A program made the position numbers and the translations under genes. A stretch of 64,000 nucleotides of DNA from Clostridiales bacterium (GTDB taxonomy: Bacteria; Bacillota; Clostridia; TANB77; CAG-508). The notes under the pieces were generated by a model that did not search any database, was not told where the DNA came from, and saw nothing but the letters and a program-made list of their open reading frames with translations. The DNA is taken from positions 12,425-76,424 of the forward strand of contig SVGD01000007.1 in the NCBI GenBank assembly GCA_015056485.1. The letters are read 5' to 3'. This document shows positions 1 to 55,698 of the stretch, one piece after another (position 1 is the first letter of the stretch; every line of letters begins with the position of its first letter).

Positions 1-206
1 TATTATTTTATATTAAAGTTGCAAATGAATTAAATCTTAGTTTAGATTATTTATTTAGCGAGGAATTACCACAAGTAAATACAGAAACAGCTAATAGTAA
101 GGAAATAATTGAAATGATAGATATGTTGAGTAAAGATGAGAAACAAATGGCCAATGTATTTATAAAAAATATTGTTAAAAGTCTAATTGAATTGAGAGAA
201 CAATAG
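1..206 (+). CDS. XRE-family helix-turn-helix transcriptional regulator, C-terminal fragment (5' end outside window)
   Basis: Frame 3 is open from the window edge to TAG at 204-206: ...VANELNLSLDYLFSEELPQVNTETANSKEIIEMIDMLSKDEKQMANVFIKNIVKSLIELREQ*. The motif 'LNLSLDYLF' is the typical end of a Cro/CI-type HTH. The ORF track has no start in the window, so this is not listed there. Same architecture as the XRE gene at 55202..55579, which also abuts a copy of the cassette. Confidence 0.5.
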   Translation, partial: LFYIKVANELNLSLDYLFSEELPQVNTETANSKEIIEMIDMLSKDEKQMANVFIKNIVKSLIELREQ

Positions 207-210
207 TAGC

Positions 211-340
211 TTGACATAATTTTTTGCAAAAACCTTGCAAAATCCTGCAGTATACATTCAATTTTTCAAGTGCTAAAATATTAATATGAAAAATTATATT
301 TAAAGAAAGCGAGAGAAAATCTTGGCTTTCTTTTTTTGTG
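211..340 (+). promoter_or_regulatory. Conserved regulatory cassette copy 1: TTGACA, palindrome TTTTTGCAAAAA (221-232), second TTGCAAAA (235-242), -35-like TATACA (251-256), 17-nt spacer, extended -10 TGcTAAAAT (271-279), leaderless mini-ORF ATG AAA AAT TAT ATT TAA (286-303, MKNYI), terminator hairpin AAAGAAAGC/GCTTTCTTT (302-333) plus T-run
   Basis: Near-identical copies at about 15737, 28050, 42524 and 55577. The -10 and the 17-nt spacing are conserved in all copies. The hairpin stem is conserved while the loops differ. Confidence 0.6.
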
Positions 341-359
341 TACAAAGGAGGAAATAACA

Positions 360-1625
360 ATGGCTACTTTATTAGAGAAGCATTTAAAGTTAGAAGAAAT
401 TAAAAAAATTAGGAATTGGAGGAATGAAGGATATGGATTAAATCAAATTAAAGATCTGGTTGATAAGACAAATATTACAGATGAAGAAATTGAAGAAATT
501 TTCTATGAAAATAATTCAAAACCAGACACAGAAGAAGTTGAAAAACAATTTGAGGAAGAAAACCATATTCAAGAAGTTCAGGAAGAAAATAATTCTGATG
601 AACCACCACAAGAAGAACAAGAAGTGATTCAAGAGGAAGAAGAAATAGTTGACTATGAAGAAGAATCATTAGAAGAATTAGAAGAAATTGAAGAAGATGA
701 AATTGAAATTATTGAAGAAAATCAAGTTGGAGTTCAAGATAATATTATACAACTTAAAGAAAATGAAAGATATGAAATTATTAGAGATGAAGATTTAGAA
801 GATTTTCCAAATCAACCTTTTAAAATGTATTCAGAATCAAGAAAAAACACAATGATAGAAAGTATAAAAATTAACGGAATAATAGAACCAATAGTAGTTA
901 GAAAAACTGAAAATGGAAAATATCAAATACTTTCTGGACATAATAGAAGACTATGTGGAAGAGAAGCAGGATTAACAGAATTTAAGTGCATTGTAAAAGA
1001 GAATATGTCAGAAGATGAAGCTAGACTATATATGGTTGATAGTAATTTAATGGTAAGAGATGTAATGCCAACAGAAAGAGGAAAAGCTTTAAGTATTAGA
1101 AAAGAATGTTTAAAAAATGAGAAGATTGCTTCAAAAATAGAAAATGAAATCCTACAAGATAATATAGACAAGCAAGATACAATTCAACAAAAAATGATAG
1201 AAGAAAACCATATGAGTAATGGTAATATTCAAAGATATATAAGATTGAATTATTTAATTCCACAACTTGGAGAAATGGTTGATGACAAAAAAATTAATCT
1301 AAGAACAGGAGAAAATTTAAGCTTTTTAAGTAAAAAAGAACAAAGAGATATAGTCAATATAATTGAAAAAGAAAATGTTAAAGTATCAGAAGCTATGTCA
1401 AAGAAAATAAAAAAATCTTCTGAAAATGGAGAATTAACAAAATATGTAATGAAACAAATTCTAATTAAAGAAAAAGATAAAAAACTTGAAATAAGAGTAA
1501 TATTTTATGAAGATGAAATCAAAAAATACTTCAATAATATAAACAATGGTAATGTAACAGCTAAAGACTGTAAAGACCTTATTATTGCCCTTTTAGAAAG
1601 AGAATTTGTAGAAAAAATACACTGA
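360..1625 (+). CDS. ParB/Spo0J-like nuclease-domain protein with acidic N-terminal region
   Basis: Motif ...INGIIEPIVVRKTENGKYQILSGHNRRLCGREAGL matches the ParB N-terminal domain (GxxEPixV...Y.ixsGhrR). ATG at 360 follows RBS AAGGAGG (346-352). The ORF track starts at the TTG at 336. Confidence 0.7.
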   Translation: MATLLEKHLKLEEIKKIRNWRNEGYGLNQIKDLVDKTNITDEEIEEIFYENNSKPDTEEVEKQFEEENHIQEVQEENNSDEPPQEEQEVIQEEEEIVDYEEESLEELEEIEEDEIEIIEENQVGVQDNIIQLKENERYEIIRDEDLEDFPNQPFKMYSESRKNTMIESIKINGIIEPIVVRKTENGKYQILSGHNRRLCGREAGLTEFKCIVKENMSEDEARLYMVDSNLMVRDVMPTERGKALSIRKECLKNEKIASKIENEILQDNIDKQDTIQQKMIEENHMSNGNIQRYIRLNYLIPQLGEMVDDKKINLRTGENLSFLSKKEQRDIVNIIEKENVKVSEAMSKKIKKSSENGELTKYVMKQILIKEKDKKLEIRVIFYEDEIKKYFNNINNGNVTAKDCKDLIIALLEREFVEKIH

Positions 1626-1639
1626 AATGTATGACATCT

Positions 1640-1780
1640 GTATTGTATCTGCAAAAGAAAACATCTAGCAGAGGAGTAGAGAGCTTGGCTCTCTAACTGT
1701 TGACAGGAAAGACACTTCTTTCCTTATCCTGCCCTTAAATTTTTCTGAAATTTAAGGGAACACGAAAGAAAAAGCAAGGA
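1640..1780. other. Putative oriT: three consecutive inverted repeats between the ParB-like gene and the relaxosome genes
   Basis: Three inverted repeats are visible: AGAGAGCttgGCTCTCT; GGAAAGAcacTTCTTTCC; CCCTTAAATTTttctgAAATTTAAGGG with an 11-bp perfect stem. GC here is locally higher than in flanking DNA. The position just upstream of the RHH and relaxase genes is typical for an oriT. No nic site could be assigned. Confidence 0.4.
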
Positions 1781-1791
1781 GAGAGAGCAAA

Positions 1792-2277
1792 TTGAATAAA
1801 AAAATAGTTAAGAAAAAAGAAGATAGTAGAACTGAAAAAGTTTATGCTGTTGTCCCTAAATCTCTAAAGGACGCATTAAGGACATATGTTGCTTCAATAT
1901 GTAAAGAAGATAGAAAAGCAACTGAAAGTGAAATTATAAACAGAGCATTAGAAGAATATTTAGAAATAAAGGCAAATGAAAAAAGTGTAAGTAAATTAGA
2001 AAAAATGCTAGAAAAGATTATAGATGAAAAATTGGGAAGAAAATTTGAAAGACACATTGCTTTATTAAGTAAAAGTGCGAAAGCAAGCTTTTCATCAATC
2101 TTTTTACAAGCATATGTATTAGCGTATATTTTTAATAGTGAGGACGATCAACAATTCATAAAAGAAAAGATTAATTTAGCAAATAAGTTGGGGTATCAGG
2201 CCATCAAGTCGCCATATTTTGAAGATGACATTACAAGGATATTACCAAAAGATATGAATTTCAAAAATATTATATAA
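1792..2277 (+). CDS. Ribbon-helix-helix (CopG/MetJ-like) protein, putative relaxosome accessory factor
   Basis: N-terminus KVYAVVPKSLKDALRTYVASICKEDRKATESEIINRALEEYLE fits a beta-strand plus two-helix RHH pattern. The gene sits immediately upstream of the relaxase-like gene. Confidence 0.5.
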   Translation: MNKKIVKKKEDSRTEKVYAVVPKSLKDALRTYVASICKEDRKATESEIINRALEEYLEIKANEKSVSKLEKMLEKIIDEKLGRKFERHIALLSKSAKASFSSIFLQAYVLAYIFNSEDDQQFIKEKINLANKLGYQAIKSPYFEDDITRILPKDMNFKNII

Positions 2278-2289
2278 AGGAAATAAAGT

Positions 2290-3951
2290 ATGGATAAAGA
2301 TAGATTTAGTGATGGAGTATTTTTTAAATGGCTTAATCAAAAAGAAATATACGCAAAATATGATAATAAAGGTAGAGCAAGGAAACTTCAAGCTTATTTA
2401 GATAAATTACACGAAGACTATATAGCAACAAGACCAGGTGCGGATTTTGGAGATGATTCTCACGGACTTTTTGGATATATTCTTGAAAATAATAATGTTG
2501 AAAAAATGGAATTAGATCAAGTAAAAAAATATGTAGAAAAGCTAACTCTTAATGATATTGATATACAAAAGACTGTAATTTCACTAAGTGAAGCAGACGC
2601 AATTAAATATGGATATACAACAAAAGAAGCTTGGAAGAATCTTATTATTGAAAGAATAAATGAAATCGCAGAAGAATTTGGTATTAAACCTGAAAATGTT
2701 GAATGGACAGCTTCATACCATTCAAAGAAAAATAATCCTCATTGTCATTTGTTGTTTTGGAATAAGAATCAAAATTTAGAACTACAGAAGAAACCATATG
2801 TAAGATACAAAAAAATTAGGAAGGCTCTTGCTAAAACTATATTTAAACTAAAATTAAAAAGTTTATATGATATAAAAAATGTTTCTAAAAAATTAATTGC
2901 AGAAATGACTAATGAAGAATTAGCAAAATACAAGAATGACTTAAAAGAAATATATAAAAATCCAGATATGAAATTAAGAATTGTTGATACAAATAGAGAA
3001 GAACAATTGATTTTAGATAGCTTAAAAGATTTGAATATTGATGAAAAACTATATATTTGTGATATTGAAGAACCAACTAATTTTACAGAAATAAAGAAAA
3101 TAGAAGTAGATAAATATGAATATAAAAATTTTGGAGAGCAAGCTATTCTTTATAGAGAAAATTCATATTTAGATTCAGCACAATTTTTAGCAAACTTTTC
3201 TGATTTAAAAGTATATAAAACAATAGAAGAATTACAAAATTATATTAATGTAAAGAAACAAGAACATTTTGATATTGAAAATAACTTAAAAGAAATAATG
3301 CCAGACATATTTGGTATACCAATTATTTCTAATAAATTTAAAGAAGAAAATTTTAGTATTTTACTTAGCAAAATAATTAGACTTAAAGAAATATCTAATG
3401 ATTTTGAAAAAGGATTTAAGTATCAATATCAAATACCAGAAGTAAAAATGTATGTAAATGAAATTTCTAAATTAATATTAAATTCATCAGAAGATTGCAA
3501 AAATGAATTTAATGAATATATTCAAGCAAGTATAAATGCTTCAAGAATACTTGAAGAAATTTCAAATAAAAAGGACTATGAAAAAATTAAGAAAATAGCA
3601 GAAAGAGATATGTTAAATAAAATGGGAAACCAAATTTTGCAATTAATAAAAGAAGTAAATTTGGAAGAATATTTAAGGAAAAAACAAGAATGGAAAGATA
3701 ATACAATTAAATTTCAAGAAGCACAAGGTATAAAAAAAGCAAATATAGAGCAAGAAATAAAAAATATAGAAAGTAAAAATGCTAGAAGGATAATAAATGA
3801 TGTTTTTAAAATGCTTTCAGAAGAAAACATTTCTCATAATGCGTATTATAATAGAATTAAAAATAGTACAAATCTTTCAAAACAAGCAAAAAGAGAAATA
3901 TATTTAAAGAATAGAATGAAAGGAAGTATAGATTGGGGAACAGAAAGATGA
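2290..3951 (+). CDS. MobP/MobQ-type relaxase-like protein (553 aa)
   Basis: 'YHSKKNNPHCHLLFWNK' resembles relaxase motif III (HxDxxNxHxH: H-x-x-x-N-N-P-H-C-H). Position is downstream of the putative oriT and RHH gene. The catalytic Tyr could not be assigned with certainty. Confidence 0.5.
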   Translation: MDKDRFSDGVFFKWLNQKEIYAKYDNKGRARKLQAYLDKLHEDYIATRPGADFGDDSHGLFGYILENNNVEKMELDQVKKYVEKLTLNDIDIQKTVISLSEADAIKYGYTTKEAWKNLIIERINEIAEEFGIKPENVEWTASYHSKKNNPHCHLLFWNKNQNLELQKKPYVRYKKIRKALAKTIFKLKLKSLYDIKNVSKKLIAEMTNEELAKYKNDLKEIYKNPDMKLRIVDTNREEQLILDSLKDLNIDEKLYICDIEEPTNFTEIKKIEVDKYEYKNFGEQAILYRENSYLDSAQFLANFSDLKVYKTIEELQNYINVKKQEHFDIENNLKEIMPDIFGIPIISNKFKEENFSILLSKIIRLKEISNDFEKGFKYQYQIPEVKMYVNEISKLILNSSEDCKNEFNEYIQASINASRILEEISNKKDYEKIKKIAERDMLNKMGNQILQLIKEVNLEEYLRKKQEWKDNTIKFQEAQGIKKANIEQEIKNIESKNARRIINDVFKMLSEENISHNAYYNRIKNSTNLSKQAKREIYLKNRMKGSIDWGTER

Positions 3952-3965
3952 TTTTTTTTAATATA

Positions 3966-4053
3966 TTTGTACAGAAAATTGATACAAAAAACGAGTTTTT
4001 GAAAACCTGCAAACCCTTTTTTTATCTACAATGTACAGAGAATTGATACAAAA
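3966..4053. repeat. Two 22-nt direct repeats TGTACAGA(A/G)AATTGATACAAAA separated by about 40 nt, flanking palindrome CAAAAACGAGTTTTTG
   Basis: Seen directly in the intergenic region between the relaxase gene and 4110. 21 of 22 positions are identical. Confidence 0.5.
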
Positions 4054-4109
4054 TGTTCCACAATAAACGTAAATGTCAAAAAGAATATCAATTATAAAAA
4101 GGAATAAAA

Positions 4110-4346
4110 ATGATTAATGCTTTAGTTTTTGTAATATCAATAATTACTTGTGGAATTTTATTAAGAATATTTGGTTATTCTCAAAAAAATCTTATTCAAA
4201 TAATCATAAATGCACTAATAGGGATAACTGCATTATATGTACTTAAATATGTTGGAATAGCAATAACTATAAATTGGATTTCAATAATGATAGCAAGTTT
4301 TTTTGGATTACCAGGTGTGATTATAATCTTAATTTTTTCAAACTGA
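4110..4346 (+). CDS. Small membrane protein (2 TM)
   Basis: 78-aa hydrophobic ORF, RBS AAAAGGAA upstream. Confidence 0.5.
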   Translation: MINALVFVISIITCGILLRIFGYSQKNLIQIIINALIGITALYVLKYVGIAITINWISIMIASFFGLPGVIIILIFSN

Positions 4347-4358
4347 AAGGAGGAATTT

Positions 4359-4640
4359 ATGATTACAGAAGAAACAAGACGTTTAAGTTATGAAGAAATT
4401 AAACCCAAAAGACCAGTTAGATATGATCAAATAATTTATATATTAAGAAATAATCCAGAAGGAATGACAGCAAAGGAAATAGCTGTTGAATTATACAATT
4501 TAAAACTAATTCCAAGCACAGAAAGAAATTTCGTTTCGCCTAGATTAACGGAATTAGTAAAAAAAGAGAAAGTGAGAGTGGTAGGAGAGAGAGTTTGCAA
4601 ATATACAAATAGAAAAGTTGCTGTATTTCAAGCAATTTAA
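4359..4640 (+). CDS. Small winged-helix-like DNA-binding protein (candidate oriT/relaxosome or regulatory protein)
   Basis: RBS AAAGGAGGAA upstream. Basic 93-aa protein with an HTH-like segment EGMTAKEIAVELY. Confidence 0.4.
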   Translation: MITEETRRLSYEEIKPKRPVRYDQIIYILRNNPEGMTAKEIAVELYNLKLIPSTERNFVSPRLTELVKKEKVRVVGERVCKYTNRKVAVFQAI

Positions 4641-4672: not shown

Positions 4673-6833
4673 ATGAACAAAAGATTAAGTTTAAAAATAG
4701 TAGGTTTAATATTTGCATTTATTATCAGTATATTTTTATCTAGCTTAATTACATTTTGTTTAATGCAAATATTTTTAAAACAACCAGAAAAAATATTAGA
4801 AATTAATGTTTTTAAAGTTATTGAAACTGTAAAAAGTTCAAAAGAAAGTATACAGATTTTCATATTAACAATTATATGCTTTATGCTTTTTGCAACAATT
4901 TCAATTTTTAGATTCTTTAGAGGAAAGAATTATCATAGCAAAACTTATAAAGTAACAGATAACATAGAAATTCCAATGCCTGTTGGGCTTCATCAAAATC
5001 AGCACGGTTCTGTATGGTGGCTAAGCAAAAAGAAATTCAAGAAAACATTTGGCGTAAATACGATAGATGAAGAAAATCCAACAATAAAGGCTTTATTGGA
5101 AAAGGCAGAAGAAGATAGAGGGATAATTGAAAAATCAGAAAAAGATAAAAACACAAAATTAAATTTAGAAGTAGAGCCTTTACCAGAAGAATTAAAAAAA
5201 CCAATATTTAAAAAAGGTGGATTAGTTGTTGGAAAAAAAGACAGGATAATATTTAAACCTTATATAAAAAAGATAAGAATATTCAAAACAAATAAATATC
5301 TAAAAATTCCAACAATTAAAACAAGAAAAGTAGAAGATGTTTATTTTATAGATGATGATTTACATTCGATTACTATAGGTGCAACAAGATCAGGTAAGAC
5401 AAGAAGTTTGGTTCTTCAAAGCATAAATAACATAGCTTTAGCAGGCGAAAATATGGTAATTAGTGATCCAAAAGGAGAATTATTTGAATATACCTGTGTT
5501 GAATTAAAAAGATTAGGATATAACGTATTAACACTAGATTTTAAGACACCACTTAAAAGCTCAAAATATAATTTCCTACAGCCAGTTATTGAAGCAATAA
5601 AACAAAAAAATACACCAAAAGCAGAAAACTATGCAAGTGATATTGTACAAAGTTTAGTTGGAGATGTTAAAGGAAATGGAGAAGCTATTTGGAACAATGG
5701 AGAAAAAGCTGTAATAAGAGCAACTATTATGGCTGTTGTTATGGAAAATATTGAGAATCCTAAACTACAAAATTTACCTAATGTATATCACTTTATAGCT
5801 GAAATGTGTAAAGAACAAGAGGATAAAACAACACTAATAGATACATATTTAGACTTTTTAAAAGAAATAGATAATACGCACCCTGCTATTGCAAGTTTTG
5901 CTCCAGCCCAGATGGCGGCGAGCAAAACGAGAGCGTCTTTTTACACTTCTGCATTATCGACATTAAATATATTTATGGACAGTTATGTAGCAAGTATGAT
6001 TAGTGAAAATGAAATAGATATAAACAAATTTAATGAAGAAAAAACGGCTTTGTTTATGATACTTCCTGATGAAAAAACAACTTTTTATGGTTTATGTAGT
6101 TTATTTGTTAATCAAGTATATACAAAACTTGTAGAAATGGCTGATGAACGTGGTGGGCGTTTAAAAATACGTACGAATTTTGTATTAGACGAATTTCGGA
6201 AACTTTTCACAAATACCAAATTTTCGGTGGTTTTTTAACTGTTGGTGGTCGGAAGACGGAATTAGATTCAATTTATTTGTACAGTCATTTAGTCAGCTAA
6301 ATGAAAAATATGGAGATAATACAGCTCAAAACATTCTTGATAATGCTTATGTGTGGAATTATCTTCGTACGAGTAATGAAACAACAGCTGAAAAGATTTC
6401 CAAAAAAATTGGTACATATACTACAACAAGTTGGTCTGAAAGCAGTGATAAAAAATCTGATAATGGTGGAAGTAATTCAATGAACTTAATTTCAAGAGCT
6501 TTATTAACACCAGATGAAATATTAAGACTTCAAAGACCTTATTTGTTAGTTATGGCTTCAGGAACTGAACCTGCAATAACCAATTCTCCTGATTTAAGTA
6601 AATGGTTATTTAATCGACTTTTAGGATTAGGAGATAAAAACTGGAACATCAAAGTAAGACAGATGAGAGAAGACGCAAGAGAAATAAAAGAAATATCGCC
6701 ACTTCAATTATGGGATATTGATAAACAAACAATGGAATTAAAACAAATGAAAAAAGAAAAAGAACTTGAGGAAAGAAGATTAAACTTTATGAAAAGACAA
6801 GGTGGAATTGACTATCCAAAAGGAAATTTATAG
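4673..6833 (+). pseudogene. Type IV coupling protein (VirD4/TraG family), reading frame broken near 6185-6300 (track ORFs 4673..6238 and 6351..6833)
   Basis: N-terminal TM segments. Walker A 'ITIGATRSGKT...ISDPKGELFEYT' and 'FVLDEF' are present. The C-terminal TraG motifs '...RFNLFVQSFSQLNEKYGDNTAQNILDNAYVWNYLRTSNETTAEKIS' continue in another frame. Pieces of the expected motif (GNFSQIPNF / GGFLTVGG / RFNLFVQSFSQL) lie in three different frames within about 80 nt, next to homopolymer runs. Confidence 0.75.
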
Positions 6834-15745: not shown

Positions 15746-15806
15746 TTTTTTGCAAAAACATTGCAAAATTCTGCAGTATACATTCAAGAAATAAGGTGCT
15801 AAAATA
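15737..15806 (+). promoter_or_regulatory. Regulatory cassette copy 2 (promoter part): TTGACA 15737-42, palindrome 15746-57, TATACA 15777-82, extended -10 TGcTAAAAT 15797-15805
   Basis: Same sequence family as copy 1. The downstream leader differs; see the finding on 15826..15957. Confidence 0.6.
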
Positions 15807-16896: not shown

Positions 16897-18357
16897 ATGG
16901 ATAGTAATATAAAATCAATTATAGATAAAATATGGTTAGTTTTCCATTCAGGAGGAGTAGCAAATCCTTTAACTTGCATAGAGCAAATTACTTATTTATT
17001 ATTTATTAAAGGATTAGATGATATAGAATTAAAAAATGAAAAAGATGATGTTTTATTAGGTATAACATCTAAAAGAATATTTGATGAAGATCATCAAGAT
17101 TGTAGATGGAGTATTTTTAAAGAATACGAAGCTTCAAGAATGTTCAAAGTAATGCAAGAAAAAGTATTTCCATTTATTAAACAATTAGGAAATGACAAAG
17201 AATCAAGTTATGCAAAATATATGGAAGACGCAATGTTTTTAGTACCAACACCAATAGTATTACAAAAAGTTGTATCTTCATTAGATAAAATAGAAATGAA
17301 TGATAGAGATACAAAAGGAGATTTGTATGAATATCTTCTTTCTAAACTATCAACAGCAGGAACAAATGGTCAATTTAGAACTCCAAGACATATTATTAAA
17401 ATGATGGTTGAATTAATGCAACCTACTGAAAAAGATGTTATTGTTGATCCTGCTTGTGGAAGTGCAGGTTTTTTAGTTGAAGCAGGGGAATATTTAAGAA
17501 ATAATAGACCTGAATTATTCAATTATGAAGAAAGTCTACAACATTTTAATAATACAATGTTTTATGGATTTGATATGGATAGAACAATGTTAAGAATTAG
17601 TGCAATGAATCTTATTCAACACGGAATTGAAAATCCTAATATTGAGTATAAAGATTCGCTATCAGAAGATAACCAAGATGAAAGCAAATATACTTTGATA
17701 TTAGCAAATCCACCATTTAAAGGTTCTATAAATAGTGATATAACATCAAAAAAATTACTAGATATGACAAATAAAACGAAGAAAACAGAATTATTATTTT
17801 TAGCACTATTTTTAAAAATATTAAAAATTGGTGGAAGATGTGCTTCAATAGTACCAGATGGAGTGTTGTTTGGAAGTTCAAATTCTCATAAAGCAATCCG
17901 AAAAGAACTAATTGAAAATCATAAATTAGAAGCTGTTATTTCAATGCCTAGTGGTGTGTTTAAACCTTATGCAGGAGTTTCTACTGCTATACTAATATTT
18001 ACTAAAACAAACGCAGGTGGAACAGATAAAGTTTGGTTTTATGATATGACTGCAGATGGATATAGTTTAGATGATAAAAGACAGAAAGTTAAAGAAAATG
18101 ATATTCCTGATATAATAGAAAGATTTAAAAATAGATATTCAGATGAAGAACAAGAAAGAGGAAGAACAGAAAAGTCATTTTTTATAAATAAAGAAGAAAT
18201 AACAGAAAATGATTATGATCTATCAATAAAAAAATATAAAGAAGTTATTATAGAAAAAAGAGAATGTCGAGATACTAATGTAATTTTAGAAGATTTAAAA
18301 AAGGGACAAGAATTGCTAAAAAAAGGAATTGAAGATTTAGAGGAATTATTAAAATGA
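16897..18357 (+). CDS. hsdM: Type I restriction-modification system, DNA methyltransferase subunit M
   Basis: Motif I 'VDPACGSAGFLV' and motif IV 'ILANPPFKG' of N6-adenine methyltransferases. Followed by overlapping hsdS and hsdR. Confidence 0.9.
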   Translation: MDSNIKSIIDKIWLVFHSGGVANPLTCIEQITYLLFIKGLDDIELKNEKDDVLLGITSKRIFDEDHQDCRWSIFKEYEASRMFKVMQEKVFPFIKQLGNDKESSYAKYMEDAMFLVPTPIVLQKVVSSLDKIEMNDRDTKGDLYEYLLSKLSTAGTNGQFRTPRHIIKMMVELMQPTEKDVIVDPACGSAGFLVEAGEYLRNNRPELFNYEESLQHFNNTMFYGFDMDRTMLRISAMNLIQHGIENPNIEYKDSLSEDNQDESKYTLILANPPFKGSINSDITSKKLLDMTNKTKKTELLFLALFLKILKIGGRCASIVPDGVLFGSSNSHKAIRKELIENHKLEAVISMPSGVFKPYAGVSTAILIFTKTNAGGTDKVWFYDMTADGYSLDDKRQKVKENDIPDIIERFKNRYSDEEQERGRTEKSFFINKEEITENDYDLSIKKYKEVIIEKRECRDTNVILEDLKKGQELLKKGIEDLEELLK

Positions 18358-19541
18358 AAAAAATAAAATTAAAAGATTGTGGAACTATTTTAACAGGAAA
18401 TACACCAAGCAAAAAAGTTGAGGAGTTTTACTCTTCTAATGATATTAACTTTTTTACACCAGGTGATTTTTCAGAAAACAGATTAAATTGGCTAAATAAA
18501 TCAAATAATTATATTTCAGTAATAGCAAAAGATAAAGCTAGAATTATACCAAGTGGAAGTTTATTAGTAACGTGTATTGGTACAATTGGAAAAGTTGGAA
18601 TAAATGACAAAGAATGTGCATTTAATCAACAAATAAATGCTATAATACCAAATGAGAGTATTATAAACAAAAAATATTTAGCTTATTGGTTTATAGCAAA
18701 TTCAAAATATTTACAGGAAAAAGCAAATGCTCCAGTAGTACCGATTTTAAATAAAACTGATTTTGAGAATATAGAGATTGATATTGTCGATTTAGAAGAA
18801 CAAAATAATATAGTAGAGAAAATTGAAAAAATACAAAATTTAATAATTACTAATGAAAAACAAATTGAATTATTAGATGAACTGATAAAAGCTAAATTTA
18901 CAGAAATGTTTGGAACACCTATTACTAATTCAAAAAATTGGGATAAAAAACATTTAAAAGAACTTACAGAAACAATAGTAAATGGAAATACTCCGAAGGG
19001 TGGAGATAAAGTTTATGTTGATGAAGGTATAATGTTTTTTAGAAGTCAAAATGTATGGAAAAACAGATTAGAAATGGATAACATTGCTTATATTGATATT
19101 GATACACACAATAAAATGAAAAAATCAAGTTTAAAACATAATGACATTTTAATAACAAAGACTGGAAGAATAAATACAGAAAATAGCAGTTTAGGAAGAA
19201 CAGCTATTTATACAGGAGAAGATGATAAAGCAAACATAAATGGACACGTTTATCTAGTTAGATTAAAGAAAAATATAATTAATCACGAGTTTGTTCTGTT
19301 TATTCTTACTTCTGATGAATATAGGGAACATATTAGAAATGTTTGTGTTGGAGGAATAGATAAAAGACAATTAAACAAAGACCATATAGAAAATTTTCCT
19401 ATTATAATTCCACCAATAGAACTTCAAGAAGACTTTGCTAAAATTGTTAAAAAAATAGAAAAGCAAAAAATAATGTATGAAGAAAATTTAAAAAGTCTTG
19501 AAGAATTAAATGAAAAGTTAATGAATAAATATTTTAATTAG
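18354..19541 (+). CDS. hsdS: Type I restriction-modification system, specificity subunit S (two target-recognition domains)
   Basis: 395 aa. The conserved central repeat '...LEEQNNIVEKIEKIQNLI...' lies between two variable halves. The start overlaps the hsdM stop. Confidence 0.85.
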   Translation: MKKIKLKDCGTILTGNTPSKKVEEFYSSNDINFFTPGDFSENRLNWLNKSNNYISVIAKDKARIIPSGSLLVTCIGTIGKVGINDKECAFNQQINAIIPNESIINKKYLAYWFIANSKYLQEKANAPVVPILNKTDFENIEIDIVDLEEQNNIVEKIEKIQNLIITNEKQIELLDELIKAKFTEMFGTPITNSKNWDKKHLKELTETIVNGNTPKGGDKVYVDEGIMFFRSQNVWKNRLEMDNIAYIDIDTHNKMKKSSLKHNDILITKTGRINTENSSLGRTAIYTGEDDKANINGHVYLVRLKKNIINHEFVLFILTSDEYREHIRNVCVGGIDKRQLNKDHIENFPIIIPPIELQEDFAKIVKKIEKQKIMYEENLKSLEELNEKLMNKYFN

Positions 19542-19550
19542 GGGAAAAAT

Positions 19551-22500
19551 ATGTCAAATTTTGAGTTTTTAAAGAAAAATAAATTATTTAAAAGTTTTGC
19601 AGGAGCAAGTATTGAAGCAGAAGAAGGATTAAGAACCAATCCTGTAACTTGTATAATGCTTAGTAGAAAAGCATTAGAATTGGGAGTTAAATGGCTATAT
19701 GCGAATGATAAATTATTGATAATGCCATATCAAAACAATTTGTCAGCTCTTATACATACAATAACTTTTAAAAATATAGTAAATGAAGAAATAAGAAAAG
19801 GAATAGATTTTATAGTTAAGAAAGGTAATTTTGTTGTTCATACAAATGCTGATGTTTCGAGAGATGAAGCTATTCTAGTTTTAAAATGTTTATTTAACTT
19901 TATGAAATGGATCTATTTTAATTATGATAAAAATTATGAAAATATTGAATTTGACATTAATTTCATTCCACAAGAGAACAATGATAATATTAAACAAGCT
20001 GAAAGAGAAAAATTAGAAGTTGAATTACAAGAGCAAACAAAAAAACTAGAAGAAACCTTAAGAGAAAATGAAGAATTAAGAAAACAACTAACTGAAGAAA
20101 GAGAAAATAAACAAAAAAGTAAAGATTTTGTTGTAAAAGATTTATCTGAATTTGAAACAAGAAAACAATTTATTGATTTAGATTTACAAATTTCTGGTTG
20201 GGATTTTAAAGAAAACATTACAGAAGAATTAGAAGTTCAAGGTATGAAAAATTCCGAAGGTATTGGATATGTAGATTATGTTTTATTTGGAAAGAATGGA
20301 TTACCTGTAGCAGTTGTTGAAGCAAAAAGAACAAGCAAAAATGCTCACGAAGGAAAGCAACAAGCGAGCCTTTATGCAGACTGTTTAGAAGAAAAATATG
20401 GTCAAAGACCTTTAATATATTATACAAATGGTATTGAGATTTATTTTTGGGATAATCTTGATTATCCAGAAAGAAAAGTTCAAGGCTTCCATACACAAGA
20501 TGAATTACAAAGAATTATAAATAGAAGAAAGTCAAAAGAAGATTTAGAACATATCTTTATTAATGATGATATAACAAATAGACCTTATCAATTAGAAGCA
20601 ATAAAAAGAGTATGTGAATCTTTTGAAAATAAACATAGAAAAGCACTATTAGTTATGGCCACTGGTACTGGAAAAACAAGAACTGCAATATCATTAGTTG
20701 ATGTTTTAACAGGAAAAGGTTGGGTTCAAAATGTATTGTTTTTAGCAGATAGAACAGAATTAATAAAACAAGCAAAGAAAAATTTTGTAAAATTATTACC
20801 TGATATGTCTTGCTGTAATCTTTTAGATTCAAAAGATAATCCAGAAGATTCAAGAATTGTATTTTCAACATATCAAACAATGATAAATGCTATTGATACA
20901 ATGAAATGCAAAGATGGTAAAAAATTATTTACACCAGGACATTTTGATTTAATAATTATAGATGAAGCTCATAGAAGTATATACAAAAAATATCAATCAA
21001 TATTTGAGTATTTTGATAGTTTATTAGTTGGATTAACAGCTACTCCAAGAAGTGATGTTGATAAAAATACATATAGCTTCTTTGAATTAGAAAATAATGT
21101 TCCTACGTTTGCTTACGAATATCAAGAAGCAATTGATGATGGATATTTAGTTGATTATCATAATATAAAAACAACTACTGAATTTTTGGAAAGAGGAATT
21201 AAATATAGTCAATTAAAAGATGAAGAGAAAGAAGAATATGAAAACTTATTTGAAGAAGAAGAAAGCGTTCCAGAAGAGATAAATTCATCAGCAATAAATT
21301 CCTGGTTATTTAATAGAGATACAATTAAAAAAATATTAGAAACATTAATGGAAAAAGGATTAAAAGTTGAGGGTGGAGATAAATTAGGAAAAACAATCAT
21401 TTTCGCAAAGAATCATAGACACGCAGAAGAAATAAGAAATGTATTTGATTCTTTATATCCACATTATAATGGAGAATTTGCAAGGGTTATAGATAACAAA
21501 GTAAATTATGCAGATACACTTATAGAAATGTTTGAAGATCCTAAAAAATTACCACAAATTTCTATATCAGTTGATATGTTAGATACAGGTATAGATGTTC
21601 CAGAAATTTTAAATTTAGTATTTTTTAAACCTGTAAAATCTAAAGTTAAATTTTGGCAAATGATAGGTAGAGGAACTCGCTTATGTAATAATTTGTTTGG
21701 AGAAGGAGTTCATAAAAAGGAATTTTACATATTTGATTGTTGTAATAACTTTGAATTTTTTGAAGAAAATGAAAAAGGTATAGAAACAGGAAATACAGAG
21801 GGATTGACAGAAAAAATCTTTAACTTAAAATTAGATTTTATTGTAGAATTGCAAAATTTAGATTATCAAGATATAGATGAATATGTGAAATACAGAGAAG
21901 AATTAGTTCAAGATTTTATAACAGCAATACAGAATCTAAATGGAGAAAGTTTTGTTGTGAAATCAAAGAAAAAATTTATTGAAAAATATTCAATATTAGA
22001 AAGTTGGAATAGTATTTCAAGTATTGATAAAATGGAAATAAAAGAAAATCTTACACCAATATTTGTAGTTACAGATTTAGATGAATCAGCAAAAAGATTT
22101 GATAATCTAATATATTCTTTACAAATAAGAAAGATGAAAGAAAAAAACTACAGTATGCAAGTTAATGGTATTATAAGCTTAATTGAGAGTTTAAAAGAAC
22201 TAGGAACTATATCACAAATTAAAGAAAAAGCAGAAATAATAAAAATAACTTGTAAACAAGAGTATTGGGAGCGAGCAACATTTTTTGATATAGAAAATAT
22301 AAGAAAAGAACTAAGAGATTTGATAAAATTTATAGAAAATCCACCAAGAAAAATATGGAATATAGATATAGAGGATCAAATTATAGTAGATGAAGAACAA
22401 AAGAATGTTATTAGAAATAACTTTGAAGATTATAAGAAAAAAGTAAAAAAATTCTTAGATGGCAATATGGATAATCTAGTAATATATAAAATAAAACATA

Positions 22501-22889
22501 ATCAATTATTAACAGAAAGTGAAAAAAGTGATTTAGAAAGAATTATGTTTGAAGAATTAGGAAACAATAAAGAATTTGTTGATACATTTGGAGATTCAAA
22601 CGTAGTACAAGTTGTTAGGAATTTAGTTGGATTAGATAGAGAAACAGCAAATCAAATTTTTTCAAAATATATAAATGATTATAGATTAAATAGCAAACAA
22701 ATACAATTTGTTAAGACTTTAAAAGAATATATAATTGCAAATGGATTAATAAGCTTAGATAAATTAAGAGAACAACCATTTAGCACGATAGGTTCTGTAT
22801 CTGATATTTTCAAAGATAATATAAATACTTTCAATGAAATTAAAGAAGATATTGAAATGATAAATGAAAGTACAATTAAATTAGCCTAA
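19551..22889 (+). CDS. hsdR: Type I restriction enzyme, restriction (helicase/endonuclease) subunit R, with N-terminal extra domain and coiled coil
   Basis: PD-(D/E)xK-like 'VDYVLF...VAVVEAKR'. Helicase motif I 'LVMATGTGKT' and motif II 'IIIDEAHRS'. 1112 aa. Confidence 0.9.
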   Translation: MSNFEFLKKNKLFKSFAGASIEAEEGLRTNPVTCIMLSRKALELGVKWLYANDKLLIMPYQNNLSALIHTITFKNIVNEEIRKGIDFIVKKGNFVVHTNADVSRDEAILVLKCLFNFMKWIYFNYDKNYENIEFDINFIPQENNDNIKQAEREKLEVELQEQTKKLEETLRENEELRKQLTEERENKQKSKDFVVKDLSEFETRKQFIDLDLQISGWDFKENITEELEVQGMKNSEGIGYVDYVLFGKNGLPVAVVEAKRTSKNAHEGKQQASLYADCLEEKYGQRPLIYYTNGIEIYFWDNLDYPERKVQGFHTQDELQRIINRRKSKEDLEHIFINDDITNRPYQLEAIKRVCESFENKHRKALLVMATGTGKTRTAISLVDVLTGKGWVQNVLFLADRTELIKQAKKNFVKLLPDMSCCNLLDSKDNPEDSRIVFSTYQTMINAIDTMKCKDGKKLFTPGHFDLIIIDEAHRSIYKKYQSIFEYFDSLLVGLTATPRSDVDKNTYSFFELENNVPTFAYEYQEAIDDGYLVDYHNIKTTTEFLERGIKYSQLKDEEKEEYENLFEEEESVPEEINSSAINSWLFNRDTIKKILETLMEKGLKVEGGDKLGKTIIFAKNHRHAEEIRNVFDSLYPHYNGEFARVIDNKVNYADTLIEMFEDPKKLPQISISVDMLDTGIDVPEILNLVFFKPVKSKVKFWQMIGRGTRLCNNLFGEGVHKKEFYIFDCCNNFEFFEENEKGIETGNTEGLTEKIFNLKLDFIVELQNLDYQDIDEYVKYREELVQDFITAIQNLNGESFVVKSKKKFIEKYSILESWNSISSIDKMEIKENLTPIFVVTDLDESAKRFDNLIYSLQIRKMKEKNYSMQVNGIISLIESLKELGTISQIKEKAEIIKITCKQEYWERATFFDIENIRKELRDLIKFIENPPRKIWNIDIEDQIIVDEEQKNVIRNNFEDYKKKVKKFLDGNMDNLVIYKIKHNQLLTESEKSDLERIMFEELGNNKEFVDTFGDSNVVQVVRNLVGLDRETANQIFSKYINDYRLNSKQIQFVKTLKEYIIANGLISLDKLREQPFSTIGSVSDIFKDNINTFNEIKEDIEMINESTIKLA

Positions 22890-25170: not shown

Positions 25171-27244
25171 ATGCGTTTTTACAATAAAATTGATTTCCCT
25201 GTTGAAGTATTAAGAAAAGCTTGGCAAGAATTTGAATGGGATAAAGCAGAAGAAAAAGTATTTCAATGGCAAAAAGATTTAACAAAAGTAGCATTTAGAA
25301 AAGATTATGAAGAAATAAAAAAAATACAAAATAAAATAGTTAGTTCGTTAGAAGCAAGAGCATTAGCTGTCAGAAGGGTTTCAGAGCAAACAAAGTCATC
25401 TCCTGGAATTGATGGTGTAAGATGGAGAAAAGACGAAGAAAAAATGCAAGCTACTATTTCATTAAATAGTACAGAATACAAGTCAAAACCATTAAGAAGA
25501 ATAGTTATACAAGATAAAAGAGGAATAAAAGAACGTAGGATTGGTATTCCTGCAATGAATGATCGTGCAATGCAAGTATTACATTCTTATGCACTAGAAC
25601 CTGTTGCAGAAGCATTTGGAGATAGAAAATCATTTGCATTTAGAAAAGGAAGAACAGCTTTAGACGCACACGCTTGTTTATGGAATAATTTATGTGATGA
25701 AACGTGTCCTGAATGGGTTTTAATTGCAGATGTAGAGAACTATTACGAATCTGTTTCTCACGATTGGTTAATGAGAAATATTCCAATGAATAAAAGAGTA
25801 TTGAAAGAACTGCTGAAGTCTGGTGTATGTTTTAATGGAGAGATTTTTCCTACTGAAGTTCGGAATTTCACTTGGTTGTTCTTTATCTCCTATGTTAGGA
25901 AATATGATACTAGATGGCCTACAATATAAGCTTTACGATTTACAAGGAGAAAAAATTACAGATTATAAAGATGGGTATATGGTTAGATTTGCAGATGACT
26001 TTGTAATAACAGCAAGAAGTAAAGAACAGGCTGAAAAGTTTAAAGTGGTAGTTGAAAATTTTATAGGAGAAAGAGGTTTAAGGCTGTCAGAAAGGAAAAC
26101 AAAGATTGTTAATGTTAGGGAAGGTTTTGATTTTTTATCAAGGCATTATATAAAAATTCATAATCAAATTAATGTTATTCCTAGCGAAAAATCCGTAACA
26201 AATTTAGAAAAAGAGTTAGAAGATTTAATATTAAATCCTGAAAAGCATTGGACACAAAGATCACTTATTCAATCAATAAACTCTAAATTGTATGGTTGGG
26301 CTACTTATCACAGAGTAGAAGAAGCAAAAGATATTTTTTCTCATATAGATGTCCTGGTTAATGCCTTGTTATTAAAGTTAATGCAAAAAACATATCCTAA
26401 TAAAAGTTTACAGCAATTAAAAAATAAATATTGGTATAAGTTACCTGACGGGAGATATGTATTTGCATTAGTAACTAATAGAAATTTTTCAGTAATTAAT
26501 TTATCAGATATTATTTTGGTAAGACACAAAAGAATGGATTTAAAGAAAAACATATTTTTAGATGATGATTATTTTGAGGAAAGAGAACAACTACAAGAAA
26601 TAAACAAAATATCTGGTAAATACAAAAGTGTTTGGGAAAGACAAGGTGGTAAATGTTATTTTTGTGGTAAGCCAATAGGTAAAGAACAGGATAAAAGGAT
26701 TATTTATAAAACATTTACAAGGATTAATACTATTGAAGATATGGCCTATGTTCACGAGTTTTGTAAAGATGATGATGTACTGTATCTTGATACAGACATT
26801 GTCCATATAAATAATAGTAAGTTAAATAATATCCTTAAAGATATACAAAAAGTAAATCCTAAAAGTAAAACAAAAAAATGGAAGTTTAGAGCGTTAGAAG
26901 ATTATTTTAGAAAAACAAATACAACTCCTATAACATTGAAATTTGCTGAAATTGAAAAAATAATTGGATTTAAACTTTGTGGATCTGCACTAAAATATCC
27001 TTCATATTGGTATCAATCAAGAAAAGGTAATATCTCAAATGCTTGGCTCAATCAAAATTATGAAATTTTGAAATTAGATTTAGAGGGTAAAAAAATAACT
27101 TTTAGAAGGGGTGTAAATAAAAGTTCAAAATTAAATATCCCACAAGTGTTTTTAACCAACAAAATTCCAGATGGTGCAAAATATGAGTTGGAGGAATTTT
27201 TTAAGTATATAACAAAAAAATATGGATTAAGCAATAAAAAATAA
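25171..27244 (+). CDS. Group II intron-like reverse transcriptase/maturase with HNH-like Cys motif and about 170-aa C-terminal extension. No intron RNA. Single-nt frameshift near 25855-25865 (track ORFs 25171..25929 and 25823..27244).
   Basis: RT0/1 'ALAVRRVSEQTKSSPGIDGV', RT2 'RIGIPAMNDRAMQVLHSYALEPVAEAFGDRKSFAFRKGRTALDA', RT3 'WVLIADVENYYESVSHDWL', RT4 'FGISLGCSLSPMLGNMILDGL' (second frame), RT5 'VRFADDFVI', RT7 'GFDFLSRHY' and an X/maturase region '...SINSKLYGWATYH' are all present. The RT4 motif continues only after a one-nt shift around 'gaagttcgg'. Confidence 0.8.
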
Positions 27245-55579: not shown

Positions 55580-55698
55580 ACATAATATTTTGCAAAAAGT
55601 TTGCAAAATACTGCAGTATACACTCAAATTTTAATGTGTTAATATTATATTATGAACGGATTAGAGAAAGGAATTTAACATTCTTTTCTCTTTTTTTG
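55577..55698 (+). promoter_or_regulatory. Regulatory cassette copy 5 (TAAACATAATATTTTGCAAAAAGTTTGCAAAATACTGCAG; TATACA 55617-22; TGtTAATAT 55637-45; leaderless mini-ORF MNGLEKGI; hairpin AGAGAAAGGAAT-ttaac-ATTCTTTTCTCT plus T7)
   Basis: Same family as copy 1. 12-bp stem with one G-U pair. Confidence 0.6.

Follow-up and report, generated by a model that had tools for sequence, protein, structure and literature searches.

A putative origin of transfer with two covarying hairpins upstream of a MobL-family relaxase gene in a gut Clostridia conjugative element

Background

Where does DNA transfer begin in a conjugative element whose relaxase belongs to the MobL family? This question is raised by a 64,000-nucleotide (nt) stretch of DNA from a Clostridiales bacterium (assembly GCA_015056485.1, contig SVGD01000007.1, positions 12,425 to 76,424 of the forward strand; hereafter the window, in whose own coordinates positions are given), which carries a conjugation operon with a short gap between a ParB-like gene and the genes for an accessory protein and a relaxase. 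MobL-type relaxases are the main relaxase family in many gut Firmicutes. Among members of this family, pLS20 alone was found to have an experimentally defined origin of transfer (oriT) in the literature that we searched, and no description of an oriT from this clostridial MobL group was found there. A first-pass annotation, made from the window alone, had proposed the gap as an oriT on the grounds of three back-to-back inverted repeats and the nature of the neighbouring genes.

Comparative sequence evidence supports this proposal, in the form of a syntenic module, covariation in two of the repeats and a nick core of the MOBP type. Positions 1636-1738, together with a clade-specific repeat that extends the region to 1758, very probably constitute the oriT of a gut-Clostridia conjugative element and lie inside its conjugation operon. 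A position upstream of accessory and relaxase genes is the textbook one for an oriT, and the new part of this finding is modest: it is a sequence-level definition (distal repeats, two covarying hairpins and TWTCCTG|C) that can be used to annotate conjugative and mobilisable elements in metagenomes, and that would predict which relaxase mobilises which element in trans.

Inverted repeats in the gap

The gap between the ParB-like gene and the next open reading frame (ORF) measures 166 nt, one more than the 165 nt first given for it, and contains all three of the inverted repeats that had been claimed, each of them perfect (IR1, IR2 and IR3; Table 1). IR3 is as originally described, with an 11-bp stem and a ttctg loop. 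The stem of IR1 is 8 bp in length, one pair longer than had been noted, and IR2, which had been parsed into arms of 7 and 8 letters around the loop cac, is really an 8-bp stem with the 4-nt loop cact. Three features had been missed altogether: a weaker fourth repeat (IR0), a pair of direct TCTGYA repeats, and the octamer TATCCTGC directly beyond IR2.

These repeats cluster beyond chance expectation. When hairpins were counted as perfect repeats with a stem of at least 8 and a loop of 3-6, three were found in 0/20000 dinucleotide-preserving shuffles of the gap and two in 4/20000. By the same criterion, the whole window holds 26 hairpins, compared to 13.6 +/- 3.7 in shuffles. Folding of 1640-1765 as single-stranded DNA gives z scores of -5.7 (+ strand) and -5.9 (- strand) against shuffled sequence. 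The region is also the locally GC-richer patch that it was first said to be, with a GC fraction of 0.40 at 1651-1750 and of 0.18-0.31 (about 0.24 overall) in the flanks.

A conserved module with covarying hairpins

For comparison, 33 related loci were gathered and 26 distinct module copies were aligned. A module of approximately 100 nt (1636-1738) is kept at the same site in relatives whose relaxases are only 40-47% identical to that of the window. In those relatives that reach upstream, the order is ParB-like gene, gap, one or two or more small ORFs, and relaxase gene. The 26 copies share a single internal order: TCTGYAT direct repeats with IR0, then IR1, a TGTGT-containing spacer, IR2, and finally T-W-TCCTGC.

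Conservation takes a different form in each part of the module. The distal repeats have the consensus TCTGTATTTTnTCTGnAT...TGCAGAGG (26 modules), and in IR0 74% of cells are paired, with three pairs changed on both sides. In the family, IR1 has a 7-bp stem and the invariant pattern TA.A...CTTG...T.TA, with CTTG in the loop; 88% of its cells are paired and four pairs are changed on both sides. Columns T72, G73, and T74 of the spacer (alignment A2) are invariant or nearly so. In IR2, 97.4% of cells are paired and 7/8 pairs are changed on both sides: among clades the sequence is wholly different and the pairing is kept (AGGAAAGA/TCTTTCCT in the window, GAGATACA/TGTATCTC in locus L007, and GTAATGCA/TGCATTAC, GTGATGCG/TGCATCAC, ACATAGCG/CGCTATGT, GTCCA/TGGAC, and GCACA/TGTGC elsewhere). 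IR2 looks like the specificity determinant of the module.

The covariation score of the alignment is 0.329, compared to 0.154 +/- 0.011 in shuffles (0/500 as high). The true structure has 76.7% of its cells paired, a value that falls to 38-50% when the structure is slid by 1-3 columns, and RNAalifold, run with no structure supplied, returns exactly IR1 and IR2. Only three G-T cells occur in IR1 and IR2 in total; their near-absence is more easily reconciled with a constraint acting on DNA, whether as a duplex palindrome or as hairpins in both strands, than with one acting on RNA.

A covariance model built on the 26 distinct modules finds one copy in the window, at 1636-1738 (92.9 bits, E 2.5e-19; the runner-up scores 19 bits), and it recovers the module from all related loci that extend to the syntenic site, in each case at that site. 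Two loci that had been left out of the build, L027 and L025, score 41.4 bits (E 9e-7) and 40.7 bits (E 1.3e-6), respectively, and bring new compensated stems, TAAACGG/CCGTTTA and GTCCA/TGGAC.

The three repeats differ in their conservation. IR1 and IR2 belong to the conserved core; IR3 is clade-specific and peripheral. It persists, and shows one compensated variant (CCCTTAATTTC/GAAATTAAGGG), solely among relatives with a relaxase identity of at least 71%, and is absent in the clades at 40-47%. IR3 may act as an operator; or, lying at the 5' end of the strand predicted to be transferred, it may be a secondary part of the relaxosome. At the other edge, a small hairpin overlaps the stop codon of the ParB-like gene. 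Relatives also have a hairpin at this place, with unrelated stems (ACACcgaaGTGT, CTCACtggGTGAG, TTCACtaaGTGAA, and CTCTCCataaTGGAGAG), and this points to an additional structural element conserved at the 5' boundary of the oriT region.

Predicted nick site

Directly 3' of IR2, T-W-TCCTGC is invariant in the 26 modules, and the window contains a single exact occurrence of TATCCTGCC. MOBP relaxases have the nick consensus (C/T)ATCCTG(C/T), with the core ATCCTG and cleavage after the G; the nick region of RP4 is CACCTATCCTGCCCGG (PMC3772185). Both TATCCTG|C and CATCCTG|C are among the mapped nic sites (PMC7755788). The window sequence CCTTATCCTGCCCTT equals the RP4 nick region over 10 nt, and its octamer TATCCTGC contains the MOBP core. 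The first-pass annotation had overlooked this diagnostic TATCCTG|C.

A hairpin followed by a nick is the standard relaxase geometry. The module has the generic layout of an oriT, in that it is intergenic, lies next to accessory and relaxase genes, and has IR1 and IR2 5' of an invariant TWTCCTGC. On this basis we somewhat favour a nick between G1731 and C1732 of the + strand, and the cut predicted there would fall 7 nt past the last base of IR2.

Table 1. Positions of the oriT-region features and neighbouring genes in the window
Feature	Position	Strand	Description
ParB-like gene	361-1625	+	Probable start ATG 361 behind AAAGGAGG; earliest start given by the ORF caller, TTG 336
Small hairpin	1617-1632		ATACA-ctgaaa-TGTAT; overlaps the ParB-like stop codon
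Gap between ParB_N gene and next ORF	1626-1791		166 nt
Distal repeats	1637-1672	+	Direct TCTGYA pair, TCTGTAT 1637-1643 and TCTGCAA 1648-1654, 11 nt apart
IR0 (weaker fourth repeat)	1648-1652 / 1668-1672		TCTGC and its inverted copy GCAGA
IR1	1677-1695		TAGAGAGC (1677-1684), loop ttg, GCTCTCTA (1688-1695); 8-bp stem
Spacer between IR1 and IR2	1696-1704	+	ACTGTTGAC; family consensus TGTGTTTAC, TGTGT-containing
IR2 (nick-proximal hairpin)	1705-1724		AGGAAAGA (1705-1712), loop cact, TCTTTCCT (1717-1724); 8 bp, 4-nt loop
Predicted nick region	1725-1734	+	TATCCTGCCC; octamer TATCCTGC at 1725-1732
IR3	1732-1758		CCCTTAAATTT (1732-1742), loop ttctg, AAATTTAAGGG (1748-1758); 11 bp, perfect
Accessory gene	1792-2277	+	161 aa; N-terminal ribbon-helix-helix-like domain (profile against PDB)
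HUH relaxase gene, MobL family	2290-3951	+	553 aa; NCBIfam label MobP3 (Pfam, NCBIfam, alignment)
Type IV coupling protein, two ORFs	4673-6238 and 6351-6833	+	521 aa and 160 aa (TraG-D_C); Pfam T4SS-DNA_transf, TraG-D_C

Genes surrounding the module

The genes of the operon are all on the + strand, in the order ParB_N gene, ribbon-helix-helix (RHH)-like accessory gene, MobL relaxase gene, and coupling protein gene, followed by TrbL-like and other transfer genes and, likewise on the + strand, by a type I restriction-modification system and a thioester adhesin. Of the identities proposed for the three genes next to the gap, those of the ParB-like and relaxase genes are borne out by domain searches, and that of the accessory gene is probable. 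The gene upstream, which had been called ParB-like, encodes a ParB_N domain (Pfam, 51 bits), and HTH_ParB is also reported for its product. It comes first behind a conserved promoter-like leader, and its place directly 5' of the module is kept in relatives.

The gene directly downstream had been described as an RHH gene. When a profile of 15 homologues of its product was searched against PDB, RHH structures came out on top (2kel, E 3.6e-4; 2k9i, E 6e-3; and 9kkd, a CopG protein, E 0.17), matching residues 4-57, a probable N-terminal RHH-like domain. The protein itself has no Pfam match, and a Pfam search of 15 homologues at E<=10 gave no RHH family. The gene adjoins the relaxase gene in all relatives.

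The relaxase had been recognized from a histidine motif. It belongs to the MobL family (Pfam PF18555, 42.1 bits, where the gathering cutoff is 28.5), and its homologues are named 'relaxase MobL' in their sources. Y44-I-A-x-R48 and the three histidines H144/H151/H153 are invariant among 15 aligned homologues, whose identity goes down to 40%. The best NCBIfam model is NF041499, MobP3, at 136.6 bits (E 1.4e-39); because this score is under the cutoff of 150, the protein is MobP3-like rather than a member of NF041499. Further downstream, the type IV coupling protein is encoded in two ORFs. The same split is found in relatives L022, L030, and L032, which excludes a sequencing error in the window.

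All of the relaxase homologues come from gut 'Clostridia bacterium' metagenome bins, some of them on contigs of 150-350 kb, and the element is therefore probably integrative. A megablast search of the PLSDB plasmids with positions 1-4200 of the window gave 0 matches, indicating that the element has no close sequenced plasmid relative.

Other features were seen outside the module. A direct repeat, TGTACAGA[A/G]AATTGATACAAAA, occurs twice, approximately 60 nt apart, at 3961-4055, between the relaxase stop codon and a BofA-like ORF. The cargo of the element in 16897-22889, 25823-27244, and 42664-46671 comprises a complete type I restriction-modification system (HsdM, HsdS, and HsdR), a truncated group II intron reverse transcriptase/maturase ORF, and a 1335-aa surface adhesin with SpaA and thioester domains.

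Duplicated modules in sister elements

The window has one module copy only. Two copies are present in nine related loci with relaxases 41-47% identical to that of the window: L007 (1444-1552 and 2958-3066), L008, L010, L012, L014, L015, L016, L019, and L022. The second copy is inverted, 79-119 nt in length, and 79-93% complementary to the first, from which it is separated by 1.4-1.7 kb; between the two copies lie a small ORF and the ParB-like gene. The copies are near-identical from about position -90 to TCCTGC and diverge 1-11 nt after TCCTG. That their homology stops just past TCCTGC indicates that the conserved, functional unit ends at the predicted nick. A unit ending at the cut is expected if recognition and termination need only the 5' side of the nick.

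To the left of the left copy are an ORF of 187-191 aa with no Pfam match and orphan DNA methylases, for which the template is the strand that would leave from the left copy; this region looks like a leading region. We also considered whether the 187-aa ORF is a serine invertase and the ParB-like cassette invertible. This idea was rejected, as the ORF has no Pfam match and the cassette has the same orientation in 9/9 two-copy loci.

Regulatory signals

A palindrome, TTTTGCAAAAAC[C/A/T]TTGCAAAA, occurs five times in the window (222-242, 15748-15768, 28066-28086, 42535-42555, and 55586-55610, the copy at 55586 having AG for AC) and is probably an operator or promoter element common to the operons of the element. 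The copy at 222-242 is kept upstream of the ParB-like gene in relatives. Between this promoter-like region and the ParB-like start codon lies a terminator-like hairpin, AAAGAAAGC-(14 nt)-GCTTTCTTT, followed by a T-run (305-345). It is kept with small changes in eight relatives and may be a leader terminator or attenuator heading the conjugation operon; operons of the pLS20 type rely on antitermination. We rejected the possibility that AAAGAAAGC...GCTTTCTTT is a remnant of IR1: the T-run suits a leader terminator better, and the covariance model has no match there.

Proposed mechanism and alternative explanations

The binding and cleavage steps, the strand, and the exact nick position are all matters that we infer, and transfer would proceed as follows. 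The RHH-like accessory protein would bind the distal TCTGYA repeats, IR1, or both, and shape the DNA. The MobL-family HUH relaxase, with Tyr44 as the catalytic residue alongside His144, His151, and His153, would recognize IR2 and the adjoining T-W-TCCTG, cut the + strand between G1731 and C1732, and remain on the 5' C. The coupling protein would then pass the strand 5' to 3' into the type IV secretion system, so that the recipient would first receive the accessory, relaxase, and secretion genes, and lastly the ParB-like gene. When IR2 and the nick region arrive at the trailing end, their displacement as a hairpin would allow the relaxase to rejoin the strand.

Several points weigh against this scheme. 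The only mapped nick of a MOBL relaxase, that of pLS20, is GCCGG|CTTTT on the template strand, which is the other strand relative to the genes, and is not at TCCTG (PMC5313138; PMC7755788); this is the chief reason for caution about the exact cut and strand. Of the motif, pLS20 has only a degenerate version, CCCCTTATGCTC, 42 nt upstream of the mapped nick and on the other strand. In a large clade of relatives the motif reads TTTCCTGC and differs from the ATCCTG core in the first base (A or T in the family, TCCTGC being invariant). IR1 contains a second invariant motif, GCTTG, similar to the CTTG|CA and RYGCTTG|C at which other Firmicute elements are nicked. A nick on the + strand would send the transfer genes in first, which is unusual for plasmids. 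In three of the distant plasmids compared below (pCT72, pEYLC1.2, and pL15) the module and the relaxase gene are on opposite strands, and in MB08-C2-2 they share one; orientation is therefore not fixed in the family. With respect to the proteins, the RHH assignment is based on E values of 1e-4 to 1e-1 and the single-sequence AlphaFold model is unusable (pLDDT 43), and the relaxase scores under the MobP3 cutoff, as described above.

The alternative closest to our own reading keeps the oriT and moves the nick away from TATCCTG|C on the + strand, which we regard as unlikely. The cut might be made on the - strand at the edge of IR3 (AAATTTAAGGG|CAGG), as in pLS20, with the ParB-like gene entering first. 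In pLS20 the template strand is nicked where an inverted repeat starts, past a GC-rich stretch, and this layout is collinear with IR1, IR2, the GC-rich motif, and IR3 of the window; a ParB-like gene on the + strand, having the - strand as template, would fit a leading-region gene. IR3, however, is missing in most clades and lies outside the duplicated module, so that it is not a general recognition hairpin, and a - strand cut would invert the usual geometry, with all of the conserved repeats on its 3' side. Alternatively, the cut might fall in the invariant GCTTG|G of the IR1 loop (1683-1688): CTTG there is as invariant as TCCTGC, and the nic sites listed for Firmicute elements include CTTG|CA, TGCTTG|CCA, and RYGCTTG|C (PMC7755788). 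Against this, GCTTG is within a covarying palindrome and not 3' of one, the homology boundary of the module is at TCCTGC and not at IR1, and the four distant plasmids keep TTATCCTG and not GCTTG, the loop of their first hairpin being GCTTTGC. A cut at TATCCTG|C on the + strand remains our preferred reading.

Explanations that dispense with an oriT altogether fare worse. The repeats could be transcriptional operators only, for instance for autoregulation by the RHH protein, with transfer starting elsewhere; RHH proteins often autoregulate via repeats upstream of their own gene, IR3 separates the conserved core from the ribosome-binding site of the accessory gene, and a TTGACA hexamer is present at 1700-1705. 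We judge this improbable. A scan of the gap for sigma-70-like promoters called none, and a promoter reading of TTGACA was dropped because the hexamer is not conserved (relatives have TTTACG, TTGAGG, or TTTTGG). All genes of the sister elements being on one strand, their second module copy faces no gene and would have nothing to control; an operator role would not account for the module ending in an invariant MOBP nick core, and the covariance model shows no other candidate site in the window from which transfer could start. The two roles are not exclusive in any case, as oriTs often overlap operators. Still less probable is that IR1, IR2, or both are parS-type sites at which the ParB-like protein acts in partition or silencing. 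A ParB_N/HTH_ParB protein is encoded directly upstream, two module copies flank its gene in sister elements, and the IR1 stem is palindromic and conserved in sequence, as a dimeric helix-turn-helix protein needs. The module, however, tracks the accessory and relaxase genes and not the ParB-like gene: hairpin, hairpin, and TTATCCTG recur in pCT72, pEYLC1.2, pL15, and the Oscillospiraceae plasmid, where no ParB-like neighbour is annotated. IR2, moreover, changes wholly between clades, and the helix-turn-helix of the ParB-like protein would have to co-vary with it. A ParB-like protein acting as an extra relaxosome component would be compatible with an oriT. Least credible of all is a structured RNA (a processing site, attenuator, or small RNA) in the transcript between the ParB-like and accessory genes, even though two helices show compensatory changes and the region is probably transcribed within a one-strand operon. 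Besides the scarcity of G-U pairs already described, the second copies in sister elements are inverted in a one-strand gene array and would be transcribed as the complement. A scan of 1400-2100 against Rfam 15 at E<=10 gave chance matches only, with no family near threshold (the best is a snoRNA model at 24.3 bits, where the gathering score is 53). No T-run is present behind any of the three hairpins, which also excludes a role as intrinsic terminators, and a terminator scan of the + strand over 1-4400 called none. An oriT thus remains the explanation that we prefer for the module.

Comparison with known systems

The closest system with an experimentally defined origin is that of pLS20 (oriT_LS20, with RelLS20, Aux1, and Aux2), the relaxase of which belongs to the same Pfam family, MobL PF18555. 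Its 362-bp oriT, shown experimentally, forms part of the conjugation operon, in which RHH aux genes and the MobL relaxase gene come directly after it (PMC5313138), and the origin proposed here has the same position inside the operon, directly upstream of the accessory and relaxase genes. The distal half of the pLS20 oriT has three direct TGTGCAT repeats that RHH protein Aux2 prefers; Aux1 binds a palindrome of the same oriT, and the nick region is GC-rich (PMC5313138; PMC5675868). The TGTGCAT repeats resemble the distal TCTGYA repeats of the window and, given the preference of Aux2 for distal direct repeats, the TCTGYA/GCAGA repeats are candidate binding sites for the RHH-like accessory protein. 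Both systems have, in succession, small inverted repeats, a GC-rich nick region, and another inverted repeat, and pLS20 has AAACCGCAcTGCGGTTT, CACCATgcaaATGGTG, and CCCCTTATGCTC in the order of IR1, IR2, and TATCCTGC of the window. At 2520-2572 of the pLS20 locus (L034), two small hairpins precede CCCCTTATGCTC, a degenerate form of the TTCCCCTTATCCTGC of pCT72 and pL15. The two systems also differ. pLS20 has two accessory genes and the window has one, the product of which is not recognizably a homologue of Aux2 (hhalign E 0.44 over eight columns); NCBI labels the pLS20 relaxase MobP2, whereas that of the window matches MobP3; and the pLS20 oriT scores only 8.7 bits with the covariance model.

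The nick region itself points to IncP plasmids (RP4/R751) and Ti borders, with which the window shares YATCCTG|Y, TATCCTGCCC being identical to RP4 over 10 nt. An inverted repeat directly 5' of the nick region, a relaxase with a catalytic Tyr and three His residues, and, probably, an RHH-type accessory protein are further common features (PMC3772185). In contrast to the two tandem hairpins of the module, the IncP/Ti systems have one 19-bp repeat. The host of the element described here is Gram-positive, with a secretion system of the Firmicute type, a large sister clade has TTTCCTG, and cleavage in the window is a prediction. We liken its relaxase to those of IncP/Ti by nick core and motif, and claim no sequence similarity to TraI or VirD2.

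Among plasmids, the nearest relaxases found by tblastn are those of the MobP3 family in Bacillus thuringiensis pAW63-like plasmids (pCT72), Exiguobacterium pEYLC1.2, and Oscillospiraceae MB08-C2-2, and the 'relaxase MobL' of Sulfobacillus pL15. They are 26-30% identical to the window relaxase over the catalytic domain, and an identity of 28-30% is given for the N-terminal 170 residues. On direct inspection, which is weaker evidence, all four plasmids have two hairpins followed by (C)TTATCCTG[CT] upstream of an accessory ORF. The accessory ORF of pCT72 is related to that of the window (hhalign E 2.5e-5, 92 collinear columns), and that of pEYLC1.2 is annotated CopG. These plasmids differ from the window in having no annotated ParB-like neighbour and longer relaxases of about 800-1250 aa. 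Searches of pLS20, pCT72, and the Oscillospiraceae plasmid with the covariance model stayed below significance (best 14.8 bits), and no literature was found on the oriT of pAW63-type plasmids or of these MobP3 plasmids.

IncX plasmids (R6K, pOLA52, and pMAS2027) have two oriTs in long inverted repeats (PMC3402527), with TATCCTG|C at both (PMC7755788). The sister elements, with their two inverted oriT-like modules and the same nick core, are reminiscent of this arrangement, but the IncX copies bracket the replicon, whereas those of the sister elements bracket a ParB-like cassette of 1.4-1.7 kb. Equating the NCBIfam label 'MobP3' with the IncX MOBP3 clade was rejected, as TaxC of pOLA52 is labelled MobP1; with the IncX relaxase so labelled, the parallel is an analogy only.

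Taken across these systems, we tentatively raise the possibility that the module represents an undescribed, widespread oriT family for Firmicute MobL-type relaxases, ranging from gut Clostridia to pAW63-like plasmids, in which the IncP/Ti nick core (T)TATCCTG|C stands behind two tandem hairpins, in either orientation or as an inverted pair around a ParB-like cassette. If this were true, the inverted pair would let transfer start both ways and MOBL would be tied mechanistically to MOBP. In view of the degenerate CCCCTTATGCTC located 42 nt from the reported nick, the nick assignment of pLS20 would then be worth re-examining.

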